A stretch of DNA of 64,000 bases from Ignavibacteriota bacterium (GCA_013112585.1 JABFGH010000016.1:5330-69329); one strand, 5' to 3'. Positions 1,323 to 15,125 are shown, numbered from the stretch's first letter. The notes: generated by a model not told the origin, from the letters alone. Made by a program: numbers and translations.

Positions 1323-2531
1323 ATGAAATCAGAAGCATACATCATTGATGGAATTAGAACTCCGATCGGCAAACTCGGCGGAATACTTTCCTCTGTTCGC
1401 GCAGATGATTTAGCAGCATTAACCATTAAAAAAATATTAGAACGAAACCCTTCAATTGATCCATCGAAAATTGATGATGTAATTTTGGGATGCGCAAACC
1501 AGGCAGGCGAGGATAATAGAAATATTGCTCGTATGGCGTTGCTGTTAGCCGGACTGCCAAGTTCCGTTCCCGGCGAAACTGTAAACCGCTTATGTGCATC
1601 GGGCATGAGCTCTGCTGTGCATGCATCAAGAGCAGTTAGGCTTGGTGACGGTGATCTGTATATTGCAGGCGGAGTTGAGAACATGACACGAGCGCCGCTT
1701 GTTCAATCGAAAGCCTCATCAGCTTTTTCAGGCAGGGTACAAATTTATGATTCTACACTCGGCTGGCGTTTCCCTAATCCAATTATGAAAGATATCTATG
1801 GAACAGAAGCCATGGGCGAAACAGCAGAAAATCTTGTTGAGATGTTTGAAATTTCGCGGGAGGAACAAGATAAATTTTCATATAACTCGCAAATGAAAGC
1901 CGCGGCTGCACAAGCAAACGGCAGACTGGCAAAGGAAATTGTTGCTGTTGAAATTCCGCAAAGAAAAGGTAATGCAATTATTTTTGATAAGGATGAATTT
2001 GTAAAACCGAACACCACTGTTGAAATTCTCTCAAAGTTAAAGCCTGCTTTTAGAAAAGGCGGATCGGTTACTGCCGGAAATTCTTCGGGACTTAACGACG
2101 GTTCCGCGGCAATGATTGTTGCCTCTGAAAAATCAATAAAGGATTTTAGTTTGAAACCGCGAGCTAAAATTTTAGGTTCCGCTGTCGTTGGTGTTGAGCC
2201 AAGAATTATGGGTATAGGTCCGGTTAACGCAGCCAAAAAAGTTTTGCAAAGCACCGGACTAACATTAAACGAAGTGGATGTTATTGAATTAAACGAGGCT
2301 TTTGCCGGACAAAGTTTAGCTGTTTTAAAAGAGTTAAAAATTGACGCAGACGATGAACGGTTAAATCCAAACGGAGGAGCAATTGCTCTTGGTCATCCGC
2401 TTGGCATGTCGGGCAGCAGATTACTAATTACTGCCATGATCGAACTAGAAGAAAGAAAAGCAAGGTACGCACTTTGCACAATGTGCATTGGTGTTGGGCA
2501 AGGTATGGCGGCAATAATTGAAAGAGTATAA
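1323..2531 (+). CDS. paaJ: acetyl-CoA acyltransferase / 3-oxoadipyl-CoA thiolase
   Basis: 402 aa. Thiolase signatures are present: NRLCASGM (active-site Cys), NPNGGAIALGHPLG and CIGVGQG at the C-terminus. Confidence 0.88.
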   Translation: MKSEAYIIDGIRTPIGKLGGILSSVRADDLAALTIKKILERNPSIDPSKIDDVILGCANQAGEDNRNIARMALLLAGLPSSVPGETVNRLCASGMSSAVHASRAVRLGDGDLYIAGGVENMTRAPLVQSKASSAFSGRVQIYDSTLGWRFPNPIMKDIYGTEAMGETAENLVEMFEISREEQDKFSYNSQMKAAAAQANGRLAKEIVAVEIPQRKGNAIIFDKDEFVKPNTTVEILSKLKPAFRKGGSVTAGNSSGLNDGSAAMIVASEKSIKDFSLKPRAKILGSAVVGVEPRIMGIGPVNAAKKVLQSTGLTLNEVDVIELNEAFAGQSLAVLKELKIDADDERLNPNGGAIALGHPLGMSGSRLLITAMIELEERKARYALCTMCIGVGQGMAAIIERV

Positions 2532-2561
2532 AATATTTTTAACAAAAAATGTAGTTAGAAA

Positions 2562-3155
2562 ATGATTTATGAATTTAACGGTATCAAGCCGGTCATTCAC
2601 GAAAGTGCTTTCATTCATCCGCAGGCAGTTGTTACGGGGAATGTTATAATCGGTAAAGATGTGTATGTGGGTCCAAGTGCCGCATTGCGCGGGGACTGGG
2701 GCGGGATAGTAATTGAAGATGGATGCAATGTTCAGGAGAACTGCACGATACACATGTTTCCGGGAGTTACAGTGCTGCTTAAAGAGAGCGCTCACATTGG
2801 TCATGGTGCAATAATTCACGGGGGAACAATCGGCAGAAATTCTCTGGTTGGAATGAATGCGGTTGTAATGGATAATGTTATTGTTGGCGATGAATGCATC
2901 ATTGGGGCTTTATGCTTTGTCCCCGAGGGTATGAAAATTCCGAATAGGAAAATTGTTGTTGGTAATCCGGCAAAAATAATTAAAGATGTAAGTGATGAAA
3001 TGATAAAGTGGAAAACGGAAGGCACCAAATTGTATCAGCAGCTTCCGGCTGAACTTTATCAAACCTTAAAAGAATGTGAGCCTTTAAGAAAGGTGTCTGC
3101 TAATAGACCCGCACAAAAAGTTGATTATAAAACCTGGAAAAACACAAATAAGTGA
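2562..3155 (+). CDS. paaY: hexapeptide-repeat (gamma-carbonic-anhydrase-like) protein, PaaY-like
   Basis: 197 aa left-handed beta-helix pattern (F.HP.A.V.G.V.IG....VGP.A.LRGD......IG...N.Q). It is placed in paa context. Confidence 0.7.
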   Translation: MIYEFNGIKPVIHESAFIHPQAVVTGNVIIGKDVYVGPSAALRGDWGGIVIEDGCNVQENCTIHMFPGVTVLLKESAHIGHGAIIHGGTIGRNSLVGMNAVVMDNVIVGDECIIGALCFVPEGMKIPNRKIVVGNPAKIIKDVSDEMIKWKTEGTKLYQQLPAELYQTLKECEPLRKVSANRPAQKVDYKTWKNTNK

Positions 3156-3291
3156 TCCGGAAACTTGATAAATTTTCGGTGTTCAGCAATAAAATTACAA
3201 GCCTTACAAAAATATTTTTTCTTCAATAAAATTTTCCTTGTATTCATATTAATTTTGATTTACATTCGTCATCTTTTTTTTTGAGGTTTAA

Positions 3292-4260
3292 GTGATAACA
3301 GTGCTGTGGGCTGGGTTTATTGTTTTGGTAATCTTTCTGCTTGCTCTCGATTTAGGGGTTCTAAATCGTAAAGAGCATGTTATAGGAATTAAAGAAGCCT
3401 TTCTTTGGTCAGCGTTCTGGATTTTCTTAAGCCTACTTTTCAGCGCTGCCGTTTACTTCATTTATGAAAATCATTTGTTCGACATTGGGCTTTACGCAAG
3501 CGGTACAATTTCGGGGCATCAGGCACTTATTCAATACCTTACCGGCTACATTATTGAAAAGTCATTAAGCCTTGATAATATTTTTGTTATCGCACTCATC
3601 TTCGGTTATTTTAAAGTTCCGGCAATATATCAGCACCGAGTTTTATTTTGGGGTATTGTTGGTGCTGTGGTTTTAAGGGGTGTAATGATTTTAGCCGGGG
3701 CTGTGTTAATAAATAATTTTAGCTGGATAGTTTATGTCTTTGGGGGGTTCTTGATAATTACTGCACTACGAATGCTTAAATCAAATCATGAAGAAATTGA
3801 TCCTGATAAAAGTGTGCTGGTTAGGTTGGCAAGAAAACTGTATCCTGTAACAAAAGATTTTCATGGAAAAAATTTCTTTGTAAAAGTAAATAATAAAAAA
3901 GCGGCAACTCCGTTATTTATTGCTCTGCTTGTGGTTGAAAGCAGCGACATACTTTTTGCCGTTGATTCTATTCCGGCAATATTTGCAATTACACGTGATC
4001 CTTTTATAGTATTCACATCAAATATTTTTGCCGTTCTCGGACTCCGCGCCTTATACTTTGCTTTAGCTGCAATGATAACTAAGTTTTACTATCTAAAATA
4101 TAGTTTAGTTATTATATTGCTATATGTTGGAGTAAAAATGCTTCTTACATATTACTATCATATCAACTCGCTAATATCGTTAGCAATAATAATAATTGTA
4201 CTTTCAACCGGAATCATTGCTTCGATGATTAAGAGTAAAAATGATTCTTACATAAAGTAA
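3292..4260 (+). CDS. TerC/Alx family integral membrane protein
   Basis: 322 aa, multi-span. It carries the TerC-type motifs EKSLSLDNIFV and ESSDILFAVDSIPA. GTG start lies 5 nt after GAGG. Confidence 0.82.
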   Translation: MITVLWAGFIVLVIFLLALDLGVLNRKEHVIGIKEAFLWSAFWIFLSLLFSAAVYFIYENHLFDIGLYASGTISGHQALIQYLTGYIIEKSLSLDNIFVIALIFGYFKVPAIYQHRVLFWGIVGAVVLRGVMILAGAVLINNFSWIVYVFGGFLIITALRMLKSNHEEIDPDKSVLVRLARKLYPVTKDFHGKNFFVKVNNKKAATPLFIALLVVESSDILFAVDSIPAIFAITRDPFIVFTSNIFAVLGLRALYFALAAMITKFYYLKYSLVIILLYVGVKMLLTYYYHINSLISLAIIIIVLSTGIIASMIKSKNDSYIK

Positions 4261-4320
4261 AGTTTCAAATCATAGACAATACTTAAAAAACTACTTACAA
4301 ATTATAGCCGGTAAACAAAA

Positions 4321-5427
4321 ATGGAAACCAACAATCAACACGAAATAAATTTTGAAAATAAACCCTATGACTTAATAGATGGCGCATCGGGTGCAGGGTT
4401 CGACATAGAAGCCGAAGTCGAAAAGCAGCGTAAAATAATTTTAGATCATGATTACCCTCTAGAGGAGAGGCTTGAAGCTTTTGAGGATATTATCGACTCG
4501 GAGGTTGGAGATACAAACTTAGTTAGAGCAAGAAATATTGAGCGTGAAGTAGGACTAAGACAAATTTACTTAAAATTTGAAGGCGGCAATCCAACTGGAA
4601 CGCAGAAAGACCGGATTGCATTTGCCCAGGCTATGGACGCACTGCGCCGAGGTTACGATACAATTACTCTTGCTACATGCGGTAATTACGGCGTTGCCTG
4701 TGCATTAGCAGCATCAATTGCCGGATTAAGATGCATAATCCATGTACCCGAAAATTATCATGCCCAACGAATAAAAGAGATGTCGGAACTGGGTGCCGAA
4801 ATAATTAGGGCAAAAGGTGATTACGAAAGTGCAGTTGAAATATCATCGGAATACGCGGATAAAAATGAACACTATGATGCTAACCCCGGCGGCAACAACA
4901 TTGCTTTACAGCTTAAAGCCTATGGCGAAATTGCTTATGAAATTTATGATGAGTTACGCGATGCACCAAAAGTATTAGCTGTGCCGGTTTCCAACGGTAC
5001 TACTTTAGCAGGTATTTACCGCGGCTTTTTAAGTTTATATAAACGAGGCAAAACTTCCCGCATGCCTAAGTTTGTTGCAGGCTCTTCATTCATGAAAAAT
5101 CCAATTGTACAAGCAGTAATTCATAATAAAGAAAAGTGCGAAGATTTAATTCCGGAAAAAATTAAAGAGTCGAAAATAAATGAACCGCTAATTAATTGGC
5201 ATTCAATAGATGGCGATTTAGCTTTAGATGCAGTTAGAAAAACTAACGGCTGGGCTATTAATGCATCTGATAAAAGCATGATCTCTTATTCAAAATTAAT
5301 CCGGGAAAAAGAAGGTATGTCGGTGCTTCCCGCCTCAACAGTCGGTTTAATTTCTTTACTGGATAGGCATAAAAAGGAACCGATTTCAAATGACAGATTT
5401 GTAGTAATATTAACAGGGAGAAAATAA
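4321..5427 (+). CDS. pyridoxal-phosphate-dependent enzyme (Trp-synthase beta-like fold, threonine synthase / cysteine synthase-like)
   Basis: 368 aa. FEGGNPTGTQKDRIA matches the PLP-lysine motif (NPTGS.KDR) of fold-type II enzymes. Confidence 0.7.
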   Translation: METNNQHEINFENKPYDLIDGASGAGFDIEAEVEKQRKIILDHDYPLEERLEAFEDIIDSEVGDTNLVRARNIEREVGLRQIYLKFEGGNPTGTQKDRIAFAQAMDALRRGYDTITLATCGNYGVACALAASIAGLRCIIHVPENYHAQRIKEMSELGAEIIRAKGDYESAVEISSEYADKNEHYDANPGGNNIALQLKAYGEIAYEIYDELRDAPKVLAVPVSNGTTLAGIYRGFLSLYKRGKTSRMPKFVAGSSFMKNPIVQAVIHNKEKCEDLIPEKIKESKINEPLINWHSIDGDLALDAVRKTNGWAINASDKSMISYSKLIREKEGMSVLPASTVGLISLLDRHKKEPISNDRFVVILTGRK

Positions 5428-6500
5428 TGCAGAATTATCCAACAGGAATTGCAATTGTTTATTGCGAAGGTGCTTACAATACAACCAACGGAAAAACAGC
5501 TCATGGTTTAGTAAGGTTTACAAAGCGGTATGATGTCCGGTGCGTAATTGATTCTCGTTATGCAGGTAAAGATTCGGGACTGGTATTAGACGGAAAAGAA
5601 AATGGAATTCCTATTATTGCAGCACTTAAGGATGCGGTTAAGTACATTAGAGAAAATGGAGAGGAGCCTACCCACTTTGTTGTAGGCTTAGCCCCTGACG
5701 GTGGAAGATTAAGCGAAGAAGCGGAAAAAGATGTTAGAAAAGCATTAAGACTTGGGCTTAATGTTGACAGCGGTCTGCATGATTTTTTAACCGAAAAAAG
5801 AAAAATGAGAGAACTTGCCGCTAAGCATAATGTAGTTATCAGAGATATAAGAAAACCGATCCACAGAGATGACCTTCACTTTTTTGAAGGAAAAATTGAA
5901 AAAGTTGACTGCCTTAAAGTAGCATTGCTCGGTACTGATTCGGCAATTGGTAAGAGAACAACTGCCTGGATTTTGGTACAGGCACTTCAAGATGCGGGTT
6001 ATAAAGCACAACTAATTGGAACTGGACAGACTGCATGGCTGCAGGGTGCCGCTTATTCCATCATAATGGATACACTTGTAAATGATTTTGTTGCCGGAGA
6101 AATTGAACACGCTGTTTATTCAGCATGGGAAAATGAAAAGCCTGAGGTGATTGTTATTGAAGGGCAGGGAAGTTTAATGAACCCTGCTTACCCCGGAGGC
6201 TTTGAAATTTTAGCCGCCGGCAGACCGGATGTTGTTGTGCTTCAGCATGCGCCCGCAAGAAAAGAGTATGACGGATTCCCCGGTTACCCATTACACCCGC
6301 TGCCCAAACAAATTGAAGCAATAGAATTAATATCGGGTAAAAAAGTTGTTGCCGTTACTATAAATCATGAAAACATAAGTGATGATAAAATAGCCGATGT
6401 ATGTGCTGCAGTTGAAAAAGAAGTGAATCTCCCCGCCTTTGATGTTCTAAAAACAGGGGGAGATGAATTAGCTAAAATTATATTAAAGTATAAAAAGTGA
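5427..6500 (+). CDS. DUF1611-family protein (DgcN-like putative N-acetyltransferase)
   Basis: 357 aa. GTDSAIGKRTT is a P-loop-like segment typical of DUF1611. The start overlaps the upstream stop (TAATG). It neighbours a dipeptide-epimerase-family gene, as in DgcN/DgcA pairs. The family call is from memory. Confidence 0.6.
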   Translation: MQNYPTGIAIVYCEGAYNTTNGKTAHGLVRFTKRYDVRCVIDSRYAGKDSGLVLDGKENGIPIIAALKDAVKYIRENGEEPTHFVVGLAPDGGRLSEEAEKDVRKALRLGLNVDSGLHDFLTEKRKMRELAAKHNVVIRDIRKPIHRDDLHFFEGKIEKVDCLKVALLGTDSAIGKRTTAWILVQALQDAGYKAQLIGTGQTAWLQGAAYSIIMDTLVNDFVAGEIEHAVYSAWENEKPEVIVIEGQGSLMNPAYPGGFEILAAGRPDVVVLQHAPARKEYDGFPGYPLHPLPKQIEAIELISGKKVVAVTINHENISDDKIADVCAAVEKEVNLPAFDVLKTGGDELAKIILKYKK

Positions 6501-6542
6501 TCAGTGAAATAATTTTACTGATAACTAATTTTGAGGAAAATA

Positions 6543-8903
6543 ATGAAGGGAAATAACTTATCAATACTTGAATGTAAGGAGCTAAAAGGGCTGCAGGCAT
6601 TTGATTGCTTGGAAGTAGGTCCGGTAAAGCTTAAAAAAGAGAGCATTACAATTCCTTACACAGTTGTAAATAAAAAGAAGAGAGAGACAACAGAACTTAT
6701 CTATACCTACGAAGCAGAAGTTTTTGATCCCAAGGATGATTCACATATTAACTTAGCCGGAATGATTGGTGCGCAGGTTGCATTAAACTATGGACTCTTC
6801 TGCAATAAAATTTTGTTCATTGGAATGTTCGATAACATTGATAGAGCGGCTCTGAAGGATTGGGCTGAAAACACAGCAAAAGAAATTTATGTGAAAAAAT
6901 TTCTTGAACCCAACCCTTTTCTTAAGGAGCCATTTAAGAACATGGAAGCAATTAAGTTAAGAAGTTATCTGCGTGCCGAACTGGAGTTTCAGGAAAGTGA
7001 TCAGGAGCCTGTTAAAACTAAGTGGGAGTTTTGGAATACCGACAGGCAAAAACATTGTGTGCTGTCTAGCGGCGGCAAAGATAGCCTTCTAACATACGGA
7101 TTAATTAACGAGATTGGATATGAAACTTACCCATACTTTGTTAATGAATCGGGACGGCATTGGTTTACTGCTATAAATTCATACAAATACTTTAAAGCTA
7201 ATATAAAGGGAACCGGAAGGGTTTGGACAAATTCCGACAGAGTGTTTTCATGGATGCTTAAACACCTTCCTTTTATCAGAGAGAATTATTCCTCAATAAG
7301 GGCAGATATATATCCTGTCAGGCTTTGGACAGTTGCCGTATTTCTATTCGGTGTTTTACCGCTGATGAGAAAGCATGGTGTAGGCAGGCTGCTGATTGGT
7401 GATGAATATGATACATCAACAAAAGTAACACACAAAACAATTCCGCATTTTGATGGTTTGTATGATCAAAGCAGGTATTTTGATGAGCAGATGTCGAGAT
7501 TTTTTATGCGTAAAGGCTGGGCTATTTCCCAATTCTCCGTGCTTCGTCCACTATCGGAAATGTTAATTGAAACAATACTTGCCAAACGCTATCCGCACCT
7601 TTTGGAAAACCAGGTTTCATGTCATTCTGCTCACAAAGATGGTGAACGTATTAAACCATGCGGTAAATGCGAAAAATGCAGAAGGATTGTTGGAATGCTT
7701 ACGGCTATTGATGTTGATGCCAAACTATGCGGGTACACCGACGAGCAGATTAAAAGCTGCCTTGCTCAAATAAGCAAACATCATGTTCATCAAGAAGCGG
7801 CAGGTTCAGAGCACTTGATGACGCTACTTCATAAAAAGGGTTTGGTCGATTTAGATGAAACACTGTTAAAAAAAATAAAAGAGCATCCCGAAATACTTCA
7901 AGTAAGATTCGATCAAGAAAGATCCCCAATGATAGGCATACCGGAAGAGTTGAGAAAACCCCTTTATAAAATATTTTTAGAATACTCAAACGGAGCTGTA
8001 AGAAAAGTATCAAGAAGCTGGAAAGAAATTGATCCATTCAAAGATCCATCATTTCAAAGACCTTATCCTTTTGAATTTAATAAAGAACAAAAGCCCGCAA
8101 AGCGGCAATCAAAAATGCTGGGCGGTAAATATATGTGGAGCGAATTAACCTGGGAGGAAGCCGAGGCAAGACTAAAAACCGTTGATGTAGCTCTGCTTCC
8201 CGTTGGAGCTATTGAACAGCACGGACCTCATCTTCCGCTGGATGTTGATGCTTATGATGCTGATTATCTTGCAAAAAAAGTCGCCGAAGCATGCAGCGAC
8301 CCAAAGCCTTTTGTGCTTCCCCTTTTATCTTACGGAGTTTCATATCATCACGATGATTTTCAAGGCACAATTAGTATATCAAATAATACACTTGCACAAC
8401 TGGTTTATGAAATAGGAATGAACATTGCTAGACAAGGAATTAATAAACTGGTAATAATTAATGGTCACGGCGATAACGCACCAACACTAAATTATGCTGC
8501 ACAGCTTATAAATCGTGATGCTAAAATATTTGTTGCCGTTGATACAGGCGAAACAAGCGATGTTGATTTGGAAGACCTTTCCGATACGCCTAATGATGTT
8601 CACGCAGGGGAAATTGAAACGAGTACTACTCTTGCAATTAGACCCGAAATGGTGCAGATGGATAAAGCCCGTAAAACTATACTCAGTTTTTCAAGCAGGT
8701 ACTTGAATTTTTCTTCTATCCGTAATGTGCCCTGGTATGCTCATACAAAAAAAATATCCGATTCCGGCACTATGGGCGATCCCACCAAAGCAAATGCTAA
8801 TAAGGGTAAAAAGATGTGGGAAATAATGGTTGCACACCTTGTTGCGTTTGTAGAGGACTTAAAAGATTTATCACTTAAAGAAATTCATCAAAAAAAATAT
8901 TGA
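6543..8903 (+). CDS. fusion protein: N-terminal region of unknown function + PP-loop (QueC-like) ATP pyrophosphatase domain + C-terminal creatininase-family amidohydrolase
   Basis: SSGGKDS PP-loop, followed about 190 aa later by a Cys cluster C.SAH......PCGKCEKCRR (QueC-like Zn site). The C-terminal 250 aa carry LLPVGAIEQHGPHLPLDVD, INGHGDN and HAGEIETS (creatininase family). ATG at 6543 lies 5 nt after GAGGA and is preferred over TTG at 6531. Confidence 0.6.
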   Translation: MKGNNLSILECKELKGLQAFDCLEVGPVKLKKESITIPYTVVNKKKRETTELIYTYEAEVFDPKDDSHINLAGMIGAQVALNYGLFCNKILFIGMFDNIDRAALKDWAENTAKEIYVKKFLEPNPFLKEPFKNMEAIKLRSYLRAELEFQESDQEPVKTKWEFWNTDRQKHCVLSSGGKDSLLTYGLINEIGYETYPYFVNESGRHWFTAINSYKYFKANIKGTGRVWTNSDRVFSWMLKHLPFIRENYSSIRADIYPVRLWTVAVFLFGVLPLMRKHGVGRLLIGDEYDTSTKVTHKTIPHFDGLYDQSRYFDEQMSRFFMRKGWAISQFSVLRPLSEMLIETILAKRYPHLLENQVSCHSAHKDGERIKPCGKCEKCRRIVGMLTAIDVDAKLCGYTDEQIKSCLAQISKHHVHQEAAGSEHLMTLLHKKGLVDLDETLLKKIKEHPEILQVRFDQERSPMIGIPEELRKPLYKIFLEYSNGAVRKVSRSWKEIDPFKDPSFQRPYPFEFNKEQKPAKRQSKMLGGKYMWSELTWEEAEARLKTVDVALLPVGAIEQHGPHLPLDVDAYDADYLAKKVAEACSDPKPFVLPLLSYGVSYHHDDFQGTISISNNTLAQLVYEIGMNIARQGINKLVIINGHGDNAPTLNYAAQLINRDAKIFVAVDTGETSDVDLEDLSDTPNDVHAGEIETSTTLAIRPEMVQMDKARKTILSFSSRYLNFSSIRNVPWYAHTKKISDSGTMGDPTKANANKGKKMWEIMVAHLVAFVEDLKDLSLKEIHQKKY

Positions 8904-8912
8904 TTAAAAAAA

Positions 8913-9983
8913 ATGAAAATTAAAAAAGTAAGTGCACATCCCGTTGAAATGAAATTGACTGAACCTTACACAATAGCCTATGAAACAGTAAGTTCAACAA
9001 CAAATGTGTTTTTAGTATTAGAAACGAATGAAGGAATAAAAGGCTGCGGCTGTGCGGCGCCTGATATTGAGGTTACGGGCGAATCTGCCGAAACTGTTTT
9101 GTCGGATTGCAGCGAATTTATTGAGCCGGTATTGAAAGGCGTTGACCCGGCAAGGTATATCTATCATTTGGAAAAACTAAAAACCGTTCTGCAAAACTCC
9201 CCATCTGCATTGGCAATGGTAGATATGGCTTTGTACGATATACTTGGTAAAATTGCCGGCTTACCCGTTTATAAATTGCTGGGCGGATTTAGGACTAGAA
9301 TGAAAACAAGTATTACAATTGGAATTCTTCCTGTTAAAGAAACCGTAGCGCGTGCAAAGGGTTTTATTGAGGATGGATTTAAAGTCCTTAAAATAAAAGG
9401 GGGTGCCGATGTTGATGAAGACATTGAAAAGATGATAAAAGTTAGAAAAGCGGTCGGCGAAAAAATTGAAATTCGATTTGATGCTAACCAGGGCTATTCT
9501 GTTTATGAATCATTAAAGTTTGTTGAGGAAACAAGAAAAGTAAAAATAGAATTGCTTGAACAGCCGACTCCTAAAGGGGAATCGGACTTATTAGGCGGAG
9601 TTACAAATAATGTTCCCATTCCCGTTATGGCGGATGAAAGCTTAATGAACCTGCGCGATGCATACAGATTAGCAAGAAAAAATTTGATTGATACAATAAA
9701 TATTAAGTTGATGAAAGTAGGCGGAATAAATGAAGCTATGCAAATTAATTCCGTAGCGAAAGCAGCTAATTTAGAAGTGATGGTCGGCTGTATGGATGAA
9801 TCGGCGCTTGCAATATCGGCGGGGCTTCATTTTGCATTGGCGCGTCCTAATGTAATTTATGCCGATCTTGACGGACACCTTGATTTAATTGGCGATCCGG
9901 CGGATGGCGCGGTGATACTAAAAGATGGTGTTTTGTATCCAACAAACAAACCTGGACTTGGTTTCGAGCCTAAGTTGTTTTAA
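8913..9983 (+). CDS. dipeptide epimerase / N-acylamino-acid racemase-like enolase-superfamily enzyme (MLE subgroup)
   Basis: 356 aa. KIKGG, RFDANQGY, LEQP, MADES and KLMKVGG are metal/acid-base motifs typical of L-Ala-D/L-Glu epimerase-like proteins. Confidence 0.82.
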   Translation: MKIKKVSAHPVEMKLTEPYTIAYETVSSTTNVFLVLETNEGIKGCGCAAPDIEVTGESAETVLSDCSEFIEPVLKGVDPARYIYHLEKLKTVLQNSPSALAMVDMALYDILGKIAGLPVYKLLGGFRTRMKTSITIGILPVKETVARAKGFIEDGFKVLKIKGGADVDEDIEKMIKVRKAVGEKIEIRFDANQGYSVYESLKFVEETRKVKIELLEQPTPKGESDLLGGVTNNVPIPVMADESLMNLRDAYRLARKNLIDTINIKLMKVGGINEAMQINSVAKAANLEVMVGCMDESALAISAGLHFALARPNVIYADLDGHLDLIGDPADGAVILKDGVLYPTNKPGLGFEPKLF

Positions 9984-10019
9984 ATGTTCTTCATCAATAA
10001 AGATTAAATCACCTGACAA

Positions 10020-10190
10020 AATTTTACTATTGGGCTTCGCAAAGCGATCCCTTCGGGAAAAGCCCAGATAAATGTAGTAATTTTAACTCCGCCTTAAAAG
10101 GCGGGGCTACTATTTAACTGATTATTAGACTTGCTCCGTCCTTTAGGGCGGAGGATAAAAACTTCGCAAGAAAAATTGGGTTTTAACCCA
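10020..10190. repeat. cluster of four short GC-rich stem-loops in a 350-bp intergenic region
   Basis: GGGCTT..AAGCCC, CTCCGCC-ttaaaa-GGCGGGG, CTCCGTCC-ttta-GGGCGGAG, GGGTT-tt-AACCC. They are flanked by TTTTACTATT / AATGTAGTAATTTT / GGCTACTATTT motifs that also occur in the attC arms at 16-24 kb. Confidence 0.35.
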
Positions 10191-10334
10191 TAAATGCTAA
10201 TTTGGAGTGTATTGGCTATTATTAACTTTCTTTCAATCAAACTATTTCAATTCTCCCCTAGTGTTACTACATTTGTATTTAATTAGAGCAAATATCTGAA
10301 AGTAATTTTATTTCAATTTTTTTAAGGGAAATAA

Positions 10335-12368
10335 ATGAAATTAAAAAGTTTCGCCAAAGGCGAATGGTTCGAAGGAACAGGAAGTTTTCAAAAATTACAT
10401 AACCCCATAAATGGTGAACTGATTGCCGAGACATCATCCGAAGGGCTTGATATTAAAGGGTTGCTGGAATATGCAAGGAATGTTGGAAGTCCTAATTTAA
10501 GAGAAATGACATTCCATGAACGCGGGAGAATGTTAAAATCACTTGCCCAATATTTAATGGCGCGCAAGGATGAATTTTATCCCCTTTCCTTTCAAACGGG
10601 AGCCACAAAAATTGATTCATGGGTTGATATCGAAGGGGGCATTTCAACTTTGTTTACTTACGCCAGTAAAGGGAGACGTGAACTACCCGATGAAAAAATT
10701 TGGGCAGAAGGAAATATGGAGCCGCTTTCAAAAAATGGAACATTTGTGGGACAGCATGTTTGTGTCCCTCTGCATGGCGCTGCTGTTCATATCAATGCCT
10801 ATAATTTTCCTATTTGGGGAATGCTGGAAAAGCTTTGTCCGACATTCATTGCCGGAATGCCTGTCGTTGTTAAACCCGCTCCTGTTTCATCCCACCTTGC
10901 AGAAAAGATGGTGCGCGTTATTATTGAATCTAAAATTTTACCGGAAGGATCGCTGCAATTAATTTGCGGCGAGCCCCGCGACTTGCTCGATCATTTAACG
11001 AGCCAGGATGTGCTGACTTTTACAGGCTCAGCCGAGACCGGAAGAAAATTAAAATCGCATCCAAATATTATTAACAATTCTGTACGATTTAACATGGAAG
11101 CAGATTCACTTAACTGCACAATTTTGGGTGAAGATGTAAAAGTTGACGATGATGAGTTTAAGCTTTTTGTAAAGGAAGTTGTAAATGAAATGACTTCAAA
11201 AGCAGGACAAAAGTGTACTGCTATTAGACGAACTCTTGTTCCGCAAAATATTTTGGATGAAGCTGTTAATGCAATAAAGGCAAGATTGGAAAAAATTAAT
11301 ATCGGCGATCCTTCAAACGAAGGTATTAGAATGGGTGCGCTCGCTGATAAGCGGTATCTTGAATTAGTTAATGAAAAAGTGGAGATGCTCAAAAATTCTG
11401 CTGATGTAGTTTATGAAGGGAAATCAAACTTTGAAGAATTTAAGGATGGAGCATTTTTCAATCCGGTTTTACTGCAATGCAATAATCCACATGAAACTAA
11501 AACCGTGCATGATATTGAAGCCTTTGGTCCGGTAAACACAGTAATGCCTTACAAATCATTGGATGATGCAGTTGAAATTGCAAAACTCGGGCAGGGCAGT
11601 TTGGTCGCGTCATTGTTCACACGCGATAACGAAATTGCAAAAAAGACTGTTGAAGGAATTGGAGCTTACCATGGAAGAATTGCGATAATAAATAGGGACT
11701 GCGCAAAAGAATCAACCGGGCATGGCTCACCGCTGCCGCATTTAACTCACGGCGGACCCGGAAGAGCGGGCGGCGGTGAAGAGATGGGCGGCATAAGAGG
11801 AATCTTTAAATATATGCAGAGAGTTGCGCTTCAAGGTCATCCTACAACTTTAACAAAAGTATGTAATGAGTTTATTGTCGGCGCAGATCAATCATCCGAT
11901 AAAGTTCATCCTTTTCAAAAATATTTTGAAGAACTTGAAATTGGCGAAACATTAATTACACACCGCCGAACGGTAACTGAGGCTGACATTGTAAACTTTG
12001 CCGGAATAAGCGGCGACTATTTTTACGCCCACATGGATGACATTGCAGCGAAAGAATCAATGTTTGAAAAGAGAGTTGCACATGGATACTTTGTTTTATC
12101 GGCTGCGGCTGGTTTATTTGTGCATCCCGCACCCGGACCGGTACTTGCAAACTATGGTTTAGAAGGACTGCGGTTTACCCAGCCGGTTTATGTTGGAGAT
12201 ACATTTTATGCAAAGCTGACTTGCAAGCGGAAAACTGAAAAGGAAAAAAGAGAAGATGAAGTTGCACAAGGTGTAGTTGAATGGTATGTTGAGGTAGTAA
12301 ATCAAGAAGAAGAGGTAGTTGCTGTTTATACAATTTTAACCTTAGTAAAAAGAAAAGATCAAAATTAA
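10335..12368 (+). CDS. paaZ: bifunctional aldehyde dehydrogenase / MaoC-hydratase (oxepin-CoA hydrolase / 3-oxo-5,6-dehydrosuberyl-CoA semialdehyde dehydrogenase)
   Basis: 677 aa. N-terminal ALDH domain (FTGS..TG, GQKCTA catalytic Cys) fused to a C-terminal MaoC/hotdog domain (AG.SGD....H.D), which is the PaaZ architecture. Confidence 0.85.
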   Translation: MKLKSFAKGEWFEGTGSFQKLHNPINGELIAETSSEGLDIKGLLEYARNVGSPNLREMTFHERGRMLKSLAQYLMARKDEFYPLSFQTGATKIDSWVDIEGGISTLFTYASKGRRELPDEKIWAEGNMEPLSKNGTFVGQHVCVPLHGAAVHINAYNFPIWGMLEKLCPTFIAGMPVVVKPAPVSSHLAEKMVRVIIESKILPEGSLQLICGEPRDLLDHLTSQDVLTFTGSAETGRKLKSHPNIINNSVRFNMEADSLNCTILGEDVKVDDDEFKLFVKEVVNEMTSKAGQKCTAIRRTLVPQNILDEAVNAIKARLEKINIGDPSNEGIRMGALADKRYLELVNEKVEMLKNSADVVYEGKSNFEEFKDGAFFNPVLLQCNNPHETKTVHDIEAFGPVNTVMPYKSLDDAVEIAKLGQGSLVASLFTRDNEIAKKTVEGIGAYHGRIAIINRDCAKESTGHGSPLPHLTHGGPGRAGGGEEMGGIRGIFKYMQRVALQGHPTTLTKVCNEFIVGADQSSDKVHPFQKYFEELEIGETLITHRRTVTEADIVNFAGISGDYFYAHMDDIAAKESMFEKRVAHGYFVLSAAAGLFVHPAPGPVLANYGLEGLRFTQPVYVGDTFYAKLTCKRKTEKEKREDEVAQGVVEWYVEVVNQEEEVVAVYTILTLVKRKDQN

Positions 12369-14831: not shown

Positions 14832-15125
14832 ATGTATTTCAGAAATTATAACAACAAAATGTATTCAACAAGAATTAAAGATAATGAAGGTGATGTAGTT
14901 TTGGAATATCCGGTACCGGGATTTGAAAAGAAGGATTTAAATCTTTCAGTTAAGGAAAACTATCTCTTATTAAAAGGCGAAAGCGGCGAATTAAAATTTG
15001 AAGATGCGTTTAGATTAGGAAATAAAATTGATCAGGAAAATATTAACGCCGAGGTTGTGAACGGAGTGCTTGTAGTAAAGCTTAAGAAGTCTTTGCCCGA
15101 TAAAAAAGAGATAGCAATTAACTAA
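14832..15125 (+). CDS. small Hsp20/alpha-crystallin-like protein (short)
   Basis: 97 aa. Pattern VPGF.KKDL...V....L.L.GE...E......F....I...I.A...NGVL.V.L.K. AAGGAG ribosome-binding site lies 7 nt upstream. Confidence 0.7.
   Translation: MYFRNYNNKMYSTRIKDNEGDVVLEYPVPGFEKKDLNLSVKENYLLLKGESGELKFEDAFRLGNKIDQENINAEVVNGVLVVKLKKSLPDKKEIAIN

Follow-up and report, generated by a model that had tools for sequence, protein, structure and literature searches.

The window analysed here, a stretch of 64,000 nucleotides from an Ignavibacteriota bacterium, carries four co-directional ORFs on the plus strand at 4321-9983, and the coordinates first given for them are correct. The ORFs, the domains and motifs of the third, and the hairpins that follow the cluster are:

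4321-5427, +: ORF 1, threonine-synthase-like fold-type-II PLP enzyme (368 aa)
5427-6500, +: ORF 2, DUF1611 protein (357 aa)
6531-8903, +: ORF 3, PP-loop/creatininase fusion (790 aa, ORF-maximal)
aa 1-530 of the fusion, +: MurL/QueC-like PP-loop ATP pyrophosphatase module
6531-7040, +: N-terminal subdomain of the fusion (aa 1-170), beta-beta-beta-alpha-beta-alpha-beta in AF2 models
7065-7085, +: PP-loop motif SSGGKDS for ATP binding (aa 179-185), without variation in 18 sequences drawn from several phyla
7620-7679, +: Cys4 zinc motif C364-x12-C377-x2-C380-x2-C383, all four Cys invariant in the 18 sequences
8142-8852, +: creatininase-family metallo-amidohydrolase domain of the fusion (aa 538-774; Pfam PF02633)
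8913-9983, +: ORF 4, enolase-superfamily dipeptide-epimerase-type enzyme (356 aa)
about 10035-10068: further hairpin
10087-10106, +: terminator-like GC-rich hairpin closing the operon
10134-10153: related copy of the 10087-10106 hairpin

The domain families that an earlier note on this DNA had assigned to the ORFs (PLP enzyme, DUF1611, creatininase and MR_MLE) are all matched in Pfam, and the tight packing it described is real: ORFs 1 and 2 share a TAATG stop/start overlap at 5425-5429, the gaps within the cluster are 9-42 nt, and 9 nt precede the epimerase gene. The fusion most likely starts at ATG 6543, giving 786 aa, with TTG 6531 being the ORF-maximal start only; the ATG is preferred because GAGGAAA lies upstream of it and because 786 aa is the length of the closest homologue, P0001. 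The four genes form a self-contained operon, which most likely serves the ATP-using modification of a small amino-acid or dipeptide compound. Upstream lie paaH-paaI-pcaF/paaJ-paaY and downstream paaZ, so that the insertion into a paa operon reported earlier is true of the window, but a TerC/Alx gene (3292-4260) also intervenes between paaY and the cluster and the setting is incidental, since the flanks differ in every lineage. An Hsp20 gene is present in the window at 14832-15125.

Full-length homologues of the fusion, 55-93% identical to it, number more than 3000; the protein occurs in 410 or more of some 185,000 species-representative genomes and in more than 3000 protein clusters. In 80 species genomes with the fusion, all four genes are present in the same order at 56 of the 63 assessable loci. 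Taking the partners singly, the 1.5 kb upstream of the fusion hold a PALP gene at 68 of 69 assessable loci and a DUF1611 gene at 63 of 69, and the 400 nt downstream of it lead to an epimerase gene at 60 of 71. This clustering is far beyond chance and the genes are truly inherited together as a unit, so that dispersal of the homologues, which the earlier note had named as the outcome that would undo its proposal, is not what the genomes show. The cassette recurs with unchanged order in more than ten bacterial phyla, mostly at about 60-70% identity and with a range of 55-78% for the four proteins, including Ignavibacteriota, Bacteroidota, Desulfobacterota (with the cultured Desulfosarcina variabilis and D. 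alkanivorans), Calditrichota, Gemmatimonadota, Acidobacteriota, Planctomycetota, Zixibacteria and Latescibacterota. The flanking genes are unrelated between lineages and different in each. Horizontal spread of the operon is the favoured reading. No consistently linked transporter or regulator was found in the cassette neighbourhoods. The literature searched held no description of the four-gene combination, in agreement with the earlier impression that this was not a described pathway, nor of the PP-loop/creatininase fusion arrangement.

Comparison of the variants separates an invariant core, the PALP and PP-loop enzymes, from a dispensable part, the DUF1611 protein and the epimerase. The hydrolase partner differs among distant variants, being creatininase, HDAC-like or FGase-like (N-formylglutamate-amidohydrolase-like). 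The creatininase domain, fused in the window's protein, is absent in locus L085; an HDAC-like gene neighbours the PP-loop gene in L086 and the whole cassette in L021, L027 and L068; and in L090 a PP-loop-methyltransferase fusion is followed by an FGase-family gene. GNAT acetyltransferases recur (L086, L088, L021, L027), and in one representative, P0124, DUF1611 is joined to the PP-loop domain in a Rosetta-stone fusion. A lysine-2,3-aminomutase/ligase/deacetylase set adjoins the cassette in 4 of 80 loci (L021, L027, L051, L068), in three different arrangements; there an AblA-type lysine 2,3-aminomutase (494-499 bits against a cut-off of 525), a GNAT, an HDAC-type deacetylase and two Ddl-type ligases abut it.

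The PLP enzyme matches Pfam PALP (190 bits) and passes NCBIfam NF004996 (PRK06381; 430 bits, cut-off 266), a model that appears to describe its own subfamily. Its PLP lysine lies within NPTGTQKDR, its Asn-loop reads ATCGNYG where that of ThrC reads STGNTS, and the Arg of the ThrC ‘PHRLEG’ motif is Gln at the aligned position. We take the STGNT(S) and PHR positions of ThrC to be binders of the O-phosphohomoserine phosphate. Threonine synthase was rejected as the identity of the enzyme because it scores below the thrC cut-off (TIGR00260; 109 bits against 167) and because STGNT(S) is changed to CGNY(G) and PHR to ALQ.

The DUF1611 protein has the Rossmann-like N domain and P-loop C domain expected of the DgcN/DUF1611 superfamily, with both Pfam domains above threshold (DUF1611_N, 82 bits; DUF1611_C, 222 bits). 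The P-loop, GTDSAIGKRTT, is intact and is kept in 66 orthologues, and relatives in the PDB are 2g0t, 2obn and 7xrj. Orthology to DgcN was rejected, the score with NF041892 being 154.4 bits against an equivalog cut-off of 480; the protein is instead predicted to be a DgcN-family paralogue.

In the fusion, the N-terminal subdomain carries five invariant acidic residues (D25, E61, D101, D104 and E118) and gives only weak, RNase H-like Foldseek matches (TM about 0.3). The AF2 model of the PP-loop module (pLDDT 77) matches 9y02_B (QatC), 9nto_B (Cap9), and 3bl5_A and 2pg3 (QueC), each with a Foldseek probability of 1.0. TM-scores normalised to the target are 0.58-0.67 for the last three and 0.36 for 9y02_B, those relative to the query are low (0.27-0.31), and identity to these proteins is 12-17%. 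With the SGGxDS loop, the Cys4 zinc site and a superposable Rossmann-type core all present, the modelled domain has a QueC/Cap9/QatC-like fold. The spacing of its zinc motif is C-x12, whereas the canonical QueC motif is C(x)8CxxCxxC (PMC13329287).

By sequence the relationships look different. The Pfam QueC score (PF06508) is 16 bits against a gathering score of 22 and comes from the C-terminal zinc region only, which is also the source of the weak MurL profile match. In NCBIfam, the query fusion and three other homologues match MurL only, the query reaching 18.7 bits with NF041275 (cut-off 700). The link to MurL passes through one intermediate, P0245, which matches the query fusion with E 6e-28 and the MurL profile with E 7e-10 over 225 residues (model positions 130-354), while the direct matches of the query, P0129, P0132 and P0149 are weak (E about 4e-4). 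The domain is thus probably related to MurL, transitively and weakly for the query, and its nearest characterised sequence relative would be MurL, not QueC. The ‘QueC-like’ label given earlier therefore stands for the fold and SSGGKDS but not for the family. PADLOC models gave no match to the fusion at E up to 0.1. Membership in QatABCD or type IV CBASS was rejected, there being no PADLOC match and no conserved partner genes.

The hydrolase domain is a clear member of PF02633 (237.5 bits, threshold 31.3). Residues E34, H36, D45, H120, E122 and H178 of creatininase align with E562, H564, D571-D573, H646, D648 and H691, which are conserved, so that the binuclear-metal ligands and catalytic His are intact. 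The best NCBIfam match, MftE (TIGR03964), stays at 144.1 bits under a cut-off of 172, and creatininase proper (TIGR04448) at 112.6 under 235; no mft genes were found near the cassette in the neighbourhood survey. The fusion ends in a Tyr that does not vary in 18 sequences. That this domain is a plausible deacylase or amidase, as suggested earlier, is favoured by the conserved metal ligands and catalytic His and by its replacement in distant variants with HDAC-like or N-formylglutamate-amidohydrolase-like proteins.

The epimerase (MR_MLE_N, 64 bits; MR_MLE_C, 165 bits) has as its best PDB relatives the dipeptide epimerases 3rit, 3jva and 1jpm (E about 1e-64 to 1e-66). Aligned with these, it has every motif of the dipeptide-epimerase (MLE) subgroup, and all are kept in 62 orthologues: LKIKGG, the KxK on beta-2; FDANQ, LEQP and MADES, with the D/E/D metal ligands; NIKLMK, with the second catalytic Lys on beta-6; and ADLDG, the DxD after beta-8. 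It belongs to the YkfB/3RIT/3JVA group and shares GCMDES with 3rit. The DxD motif presumably binds the free N-terminus of the dipeptide. At the position of YkfB Arg24, the Glu-binding Arg of Ala-Glu epimerases, the enzyme has Glu24, and D295/E296 are further acidic specificity positions. Our reading of these positions assumes that R24, in the 20s loop of YkfB, binds the Glu side chain and that 3RIT is a cationic dipeptide epimerase. The retained DxD together with Glu in place of the Glu-binding Arg makes D-Glu an unlikely substrate, and the acidic positions, with the AblA-type aminomutase adjacency, point to a cationic one. Two identities were rejected: DgcA, as NF042940 gives 156.2 bits against a cut-off of 400, and L-Ala-D/L-Glu epimerase, as both equivalogs fail (NF041118, 253 against 500 bits; NF011708, 99 against 343), Arg is replaced by Glu24 and there are no murein-recycling neighbours.

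From the gene set, its conservation, the intact catalytic motifs, the fold and homology relations and the division into core and exchangeable parts, all established here, we infer a pathway that would acylate, adenylate or epimerise, and deacylate a cationic amino acid or dipeptide. We favour it tentatively, and it falls somewhat short of probable. The operon would build or convert a small N-acylated amino acid or dipeptide, with ATP paying for a step at the C-terminal carboxylate, and the side chain is probably cationic, of the lysine, beta-lysine or diamino-acid type. The ThrC-like PLP enzyme would either supply the free amino acid, through beta/gamma-replacement or through elimination, or use it up. 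The DgcN-like DUF1611 protein, or in variants a GNAT or Ddl-type ligase, may then add an acyl or aminoacyl group to the alpha-amine, and the dipeptide-type epimerase could invert the C-alpha of the C-terminal residue. The MurL/QueC-like PP-loop domain would adenylate the carboxylate, converting ATP to AMP and PPi, and the activation may then drive a one-way epimerisation of the MurL kind or else, in the manner of QueC, Cap9 and QatC, the formation of an amide or a ring. Cleavage of an amide by the fused binuclear-metal amidohydrolase, by deacylation or ring opening, would release the product.

Consistent with this pathway are the conserved order and identity of the genes amid unrelated flanks, the ATP and zinc motifs of the PP-loop domain, its structural matches and its link to MurL, the exchange of hydrolases, the recurrent GNATs, the P0124 fusion and the intact catalytic residues. 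Against it, MurL-like epimerisation by the PP-loop domain would make the enolase-type epimerase look redundant, yet most loci keep both, and ligase and hydrolase in one protein would form a futile pair unless they differed in stereo- or regio-specificity. The MurL link is transitive and weak for the query, the lysine-aminomutase association is confined to four loci, and no consistently linked transporter or regulator fixes the direction of the scheme as biosynthetic or catabolic. A bolder version, which we think doubtful, is that the fusion is a new ATP-driven enzyme that adenylates the C-terminal carboxylate of an N-acyl amino acid or dipeptide and passes an activated, possibly cyclised, intermediate to its metallo-hydrolase, with irreversible stereoinversion or rearrangement as the outcome. 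With the non-canonical ThrC-like PLP enzyme it would constitute a pathway, hitherto unrecognised and widely transferred, by which anaerobic bacteria of sediments arrive at a metabolite that is D-configured or linked to beta-lysine. If true, this would show a role for the MurL superfamily outside peptidoglycan synthesis.

Catabolic stereoinversion of the Dgc type, the lead given by the earlier note, with D-glutamate or another acidic D-amino acid N-acetylated by the DUF1611 protein, racemised by the enolase-superfamily enzyme and deacetylated by the creatininase domain, and with the PLP and PP-loop enzymes as accessories, is unlikely. The earlier note was right that the two proteins come from the families of DgcN and DgcA and stand side by side; they match both models in part, the fusion has a deacylase-type hydrolase, and dgcN-like genes are reported to be widespread in sediment Bacteroidota (PMC12363236). 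However, the scores (154 against 480 and 156 against 400 bits) are far under the equivalog cut-offs, the epimerase is closer to dipeptide epimerases in its DxD and its Glu for Arg, the pair is dispensable while PALP and PP-loop are invariant, and no transporter or catabolic partner is linked. Of the D-amino-acid or peptide-processing idea, the genuine unit survives, but not DgcN/DgcA membership, and D-Glu is unlikely. Ordinary murein-peptide recycling, with an L-Ala-D/L-Glu epimerase whose neighbours are a common threonine synthase and genes of no related function, is disfavoured to the point of being scarcely credible. Annotation models do give threonine synthase through NF004996, and the Ala-Glu epimerase models are the nearest to the epimerase, but their cut-offs are missed, the Arg24 equivalent is absent, and the PALP protein fails thrC and differs at the positions that we take to bind phosphate. 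The four genes also co-occur in fixed order across phyla, and the neighbourhood survey linked the cassette to no LD-carboxypeptidase, no endopeptidase and no peptide transporter; the epimerase is not in the murein-recycling context that the earlier note had named as counting against its proposal.

The associated genes and the PP-loop fold lend themselves to two other explanations. In the first, the cassette makes a solute that protects against stress and is an N-acetyl-diamino acid or cyclic amidine in type (ectoine-like or N-acetyl-beta-lysine-derived); this would have the PLP enzyme or aminomutase supply a diamino acid, DUF1611 or a GNAT acetylate it, the PP-loop domain activate a carbonyl for amidation or cyclisation, and the hydrolase recycle or trim. 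The aminomutase, GNAT, deacetylase and ligase genes abutting the cassette, the acidic epimerase pocket, the YitT-type membrane proteins downstream of the cassette in 15 loci and the Hsp20 genes recurring nearby (in the window and in L003, L039, L042, L047, L067 and L079) would suit such a role, as would NASAT, a PP-loop enzyme described in PMC10607449 as turning N-acetyl amides into amidines. These associations are in the minority, however (4 of 80 for the aminomutase), a hydrolase-synthetase fusion is odd for solute accumulation, and the idea is entirely inferential; we consider it improbable. The second, in which the cassette matures a ribosomal peptide or modifies a protein, by QueC-like conjugation of a carboxylate to a protein amine (Cap9, QatC) or by MftE-like trimming of a precursor (mycofactocin), is very improbable. 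It accords with QatC and Cap9 as top Foldseek matches, MftE as best NCBIfam match (144 bits) and the invariant C-terminal Tyr. But MftE remains under its cut-off of 172, the TM-scores relative to the query are 0.27-0.31, no conserved precursor-peptide, radical-SAM, TGT-like or nuclease partner gene accompanies the cassette, PADLOC gives no match, and conservation is housekeeping-like rather than defence-island-like.

The cassette is common, strongly conserved and entirely uncharacterised, and the current labels ‘threonine synthase’, ‘creatininase family protein’ and ‘7-cyano-7-deazaguanine synthase’ are probably misleading. It joins DUF1611/DgcN-like, MurL-like PP-loop and non-creatinine creatininase homologues, all poorly understood, in one testable operon, and the cultured Desulfosarcina carriers make experiments possible. 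Its solution would give a function to thousands of genes and could expose a new ATP-dependent route to D-/beta-amino-acid-containing metabolites in sediment anaerobes.

Parts of the cassette resemble several known systems. Among characterised families, MurL alone is matched by sequence by the PP-loop module and its homologues. With ATP and Mg as cofactors and AMP as a product, MurL converts the L-Glu at the end of a peptide to its epimer in one direction only (PMC5808125, PMC8788868). Its site of action is the alpha-carboxylate of a peptide's C-terminal residue, which becomes a D-residue, and the cassette also holds an epimerase for a C-terminal residue. In contrast to MurL, the cassette has no MurD2 partner and no peptidoglycan context, and its module, at 18.7 against 700 bits, is extended by further subdomains at its N- and C-terminal ends and is fused to a hydrolase. 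QueC, Cap9 (type IV CBASS) and QatC (QatABCD), whose chemistry is adenylation of a carboxylate followed by amine attack, are the best structural matches and share the SGGxDS PP-loop and Cys4 zinc site. The fusion differs from them in its sub-threshold Pfam QueC score, its C-x12 rather than C-x8 spacing and its 12-17% identity, and the cassette in having no 7-deazaguanine or defence partner genes.

In DgcN/DgcA/DgcH, a pathway of irreversible racemisation for which dgcN is described as the key gene (PMC12363236), a DUF1611 protein and an MLE-subgroup enolase enzyme likewise stand side by side with an amide hydrolase, and the logic is to acylate, racemise and deacylate; but the invariant PALP and PP-loop enzymes have no Dgc counterpart, and the cassette's DUF1611/epimerase module is dispensable, with an epimerase of YkfB/3RIT dipeptide type and an acidic pocket. 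The dipeptide epimerases YkfB (1jpm/1tkk), 3rit and 3jva are matched over the full length (E 1e-64 to 1e-66), with catalytic, metal and DxD motifs all present, but the cassette lacks murein and peptide-transport genes and has Glu24 for the Arg of Ala-Glu epimerases. Finally, the hydrolase is a clear Pfam member of the family of creatininase, MftE, ArfB and IolN, with its binuclear-metal ligands and catalytic His, but it lies under every equivalog cut-off and, unlike them, is fused to a PP-loop module.

That the four genes form a real functional unit is well supported. They are tightly packed in the window, as the earlier note had it, with a TAATG overlap between the PALP and DUF1611 reading frames and a gap of 9 nt between the fusion and epimerase genes; its domain assignments for all four ORFs also proved correct. 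The features are:

4321-5427, + strand, co-directional with the other three: PALP-type PLP enzyme (ORF call and domain match)
5427-6500, + strand, co-directional with the other three: DUF1611_N plus DUF1611_C protein (ORF call and domain matches)
6531-8903, + strand, co-directional with the other three: fusion protein, a long N-terminal region followed by a creatininase domain (residues 538-774)
8913-9983, + strand, co-directional with the other three: epimerase, MR_MLE_N plus MR_MLE_C (domain matches)
10087-10106, after the epimerase gene: terminator-like GC-rich hairpin

The fusion protein most likely starts at ATG 6543 rather than at the ORF-maximal TTG 6531; this ATG has GAGGAAA 6-12 nt upstream and gives a product of 786 aa, matching the closest homologue, P0001, in length. 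The hairpin is one of three GC-rich hairpins (~10035-10068, 10087-10106 and 10134-10153) in the 350-nt spacer before paaZ (9984-10334), of which the latter two are related copies absent from the rest of the window. A search of window positions 2500-10500 against Rfam (E up to 0.1) gave no riboswitch or other RNA, including upstream of the TerC/Alx gene, and a sigma-70 promoter scan (27 against 22.4 for shuffled sequence) did not rise above expectation.

Full-length homologues of the fusion protein number more than 3000, at 55-93% identity, the nearest named relatives being from Ignavibacteriales and Melioribacteraceae (67-69%). When one genome per species was scanned, at least 410 species carried a fusion relative, and 80 loci were fetched and scored by tblastn with the four window proteins. 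In 68 of 69 assessable loci the PLP gene is found no more than 1.5 kb upstream of the fusion gene, the DUF1611 gene is upstream in 63 of 69, and the epimerase gene follows within 400 nt in 60 of 71. The complete set is present in 56 of 63 loci and the gene order never varies, so the co-localisation on which the proposal of a joint pathway depended is borne out. Median identities to the window proteins are 69% (PLP enzyme), 64% (DUF1611), 59% (fusion) and 64% (epimerase). Host phyla include Ignavibacteriota, Bacteroidota, Desulfobacterota (with the cultured Desulfosarcina variabilis and D. alkanivorans), Calditrichota, Gemmatimonadota and Acidobacteriota; further hosts are Planctomycetota, Zixibacteria, Latescibacterota, Krumholzibacteria and some Clostridia. 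The cultured strains are D. variabilis str. Montpellier (locus L031, within NZ_CP159846.1 7,916,239-7,934,584) and D. alkanivorans PL12 (locus L081, within NZ_AP021874.1 4,779,878-4,798,232).

Clustering of all flanking ORFs found no fifth universally linked gene, and the flanks vary from lineage to lineage; the cassette is therefore a self-contained unit that has spread laterally, and its position among paa genes is incidental. In the window it does sit within a paa operon, with paaH, paaI, pcaF/paaJ, paaY and the TerC/Alx gene (3292-4260) upstream and paaZ, an unassigned ORF and ispH downstream. No other locus shares these flanks, and a link to phenylacetate catabolism was rejected on that ground.

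Variant loci separate a core from exchangeable parts. In seven loci of Desulfobacterales the cassette consists of PALP and the fusion alone, and a YitT-type membrane protein usually comes next. One locus (L085) has PALP, DUF1611, a PP-loop protein that lacks the creatininase domain, and the epimerase; another (L088) has PALP, DUF1611, PP-loop and GNAT; a third (L086) has PALP, DUF1611 and a GNAT next to an HDAC-like hydrolase, an uncharacterised protein and a PP-loop protein; and a fourth (L090) combines DUF1611 with a PP-loop-methyltransferase fusion and a gene of the N-formylglutamate amidohydrolase family. In one representative, DUF1611 and the PP-loop module are joined in a single protein, and older fusions, at 31-33% identity, likewise bear the creatininase domain. 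The contexts of three further homologues (P0144, P0245, P0251) were too short or uninformative for this comparison. From these variants, PALP plus PP-loop is the invariant core across cassette forms; an amide hydrolase is nearly always there but comes from three unrelated families, a gene for N-acyl transfer (DUF1611 or GNAT) is recurrent, and the enolase-superfamily epimerase is optional. The Desulfobacterales MAG JASFFJ01 contains three separate minimal PALP-fusion-YitT copies (L032, L035, L044), which may reflect paralogy or a binning artefact.

The N-terminal 530 aa of the fusion alone have no above-threshold Pfam or NCBIfam match and no sequence relative in the PDB; the sub-threshold matches are to QueC, DUF6395 and MurL only. 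A PP-loop, SSGGKDS, and four cysteines (C364-x12-C377-x2-C380-x2-C383) are invariant. The AlphaFold2 model of the module (pLDDT 77, pTM 0.80) has QatC, Cap9 and QueC as its best Foldseek matches (probability 1.0; TM normalised to target 0.58-0.67 for Cap9 and QueC and 0.36 for QatC), and on this model the core is predicted to be a QueC-like ATP pyrophosphatase, with one subdomain on its N-terminal side (aa 1-170) and a helical one on its C-terminal side (aa 400-530). QueC-family enzymes adenylate a carboxylate and then couple it to ammonia or a protein amine (PMC13329287); neither creatininase fusions nor MurL are mentioned in the 2026 survey of the family. When 1.84 billion representatives were searched exhaustively with HMMER, the module had only 405 relatives. 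One of these, P0245, matches the query module at E 6e-28 and aligns over 225 positions with the MurL model of NCBIfam (E 7e-10); the query module and three other relatives match MurL weakly and no other NCBIfam model. With P0245 as intermediate, the module, with its predicted QueC-like fold, is thus probably a distant relative of MurL, by a transitive link. MurL itself 'lacks known conserved domains' according to its discoverers (PMC5808125, PMC8788868). In the N-terminal subdomain (window 6531-7040) strands and helices follow an RNase H-like order, and the acidic residues D25, E61, D101, D104 and E118 are invariant. An RNase H-like identity was set aside, since the separately modelled subdomain gave only weak topology matches in Foldseek (TM ~0.3, rmsd ~10 Å). 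PADLOC found no defence-system match. Some fusion proteins carry the JGI label '7-cyano-7-deazaguanine synthase'.

The C-terminal domain is, from its sequence, clearly a creatininase-family member, in which the counterparts of creatininase E34, H36, D45, H120, E122 and H178 are conserved; it falls below the equivalog cut-offs of both creatininase and MftE. The extreme C-terminus, EIHQKKY (window 8886-8903), is nearly invariant, with Ile785 and the terminal Tyr790 identical in 18 multi-phylum sequences.

In the favoured reading, offered tentatively and with every step proposed, these proteins may acylate a small amino acid or dipeptide, activate and epimerise it, and then deacylate it. The PLP enzyme would supply or remove the free amino acid, whose amine the DUF1611 protein would acylate. 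The PP-loop module would adenylate the C-terminal carboxylate, powering a MurL-like inversion or a QueC-like formation of an amide or ring, and the fused hydrolase would then cleave an amide. The enolase-superfamily enzyme would contribute reversible epimerisation of a dipeptide-like intermediate.

A true Dgc-type pathway of D-glutamate catabolism, suggested by the pairing of a DUF1611 protein with an epimerase, is weaker. The P-loop of the DUF1611 protein is intact, but the score of 154 bits against the DgcN model falls short of the cut-off of 480. The epimerase misses the DgcA equivalog; the earlier call of it as dipeptide-epimerase-like holds, its closest solved structures being the dipeptide epimerases 3rit, 3jva and 1jpm (E 1e-64 to 1e-66). 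The KxK, three metal ligands, second lysine and DxD motif are present; in dipeptide epimerases the last of these is the binding site for the dipeptide's free N-terminal ammonium. A conserved Glu occupies the position of YkfB Arg24, and GCMDES is common to the epimerase and 3rit, which was reportedly solved with a cationic dipeptide; from these residues the C-terminal substrate residue would be cationic, not acidic. Ordinary murein recycling plus threonine synthesis, towards which NF004996 ('threonine synthase', PRK06381) would point, is also weaker. The epimerase misses both L-Ala-D/L-Glu epimerase equivalogs and has Glu at the Arg24 position. The PLP enzyme passes NF004996 (430 bits against 266), misses thrC TIGR00260, departs from the solved threonine synthase structures at two aligned positions, the Asn-loop Thr and the 'PHR' Arg, and always occurs within this cassette; it is probably not a threonine synthase, and the NF004996 name is probably a systematic mis-naming of the cassette enzyme.

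Neighbouring genes give a lead on the substrate of the acylate, activate/epimerise, deacylate pathway. At four loci from two phyla (L021, 10375-16348; L027, 71-5456; L051, 777-5002; L068, 374-5483) an extra gene set adjoins the cassette in three arrangements, co-directional, divergent or convergent. It includes an AblA-type lysine 2,3-aminomutase (494-499 bits against a cut-off of 525), Ddl-type ATP-grasp ligases (two each in L021, L027 and L051; none detected in L068), a small GNAT and an HDAC-type deacetylase. In several lineages an Hsp20 gene is found no more than a few kb from the cassette (window 14832-15125; L003 7368-7592; L039, L042, L047, L067, L079). CorA is near it in 7 loci of several lineages. 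Recurrent neighbours in Desulfobacterota are a sigma-54 response regulator and a YitT/DUF2179 membrane protein, each in 15 loci, and a DksA-like protein, in 7. The aminomutase set, the Hsp20 genes and the acidic epimerase pocket together point to a compound of lysine, beta-lysine or diamino-acid type, and the cassette possibly has a stress-related role, the support for both coming from a minority of loci. The idea that the cassette makes a solute of the N-acetyl-diamino-acid or cyclic-amidine type would draw on the same neighbours, with the same restriction to a minority of loci, and is a weaker explanation. Modification of peptides or proteins would accord with the coupling to protein amines by QueC-family enzymes; it too is weaker.

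The literature searched, including for DUF1611 and creatininase with PP-loop, held no paper on this four-gene combination, in keeping with the initial impression that it matched no described pathway. The cassette is of note in being widespread, probably mis-annotated and experimentally accessible. By the curated criteria applied, its proteins lie outside DgcN, DgcA, MurL, QueC, MftE, creatininase proper, Ala-Glu epimerase and ThrC, and it may be likened to a hybrid of the stereoinversion logic of Dgc with ATP-dependent epimerisation of the MurL type.
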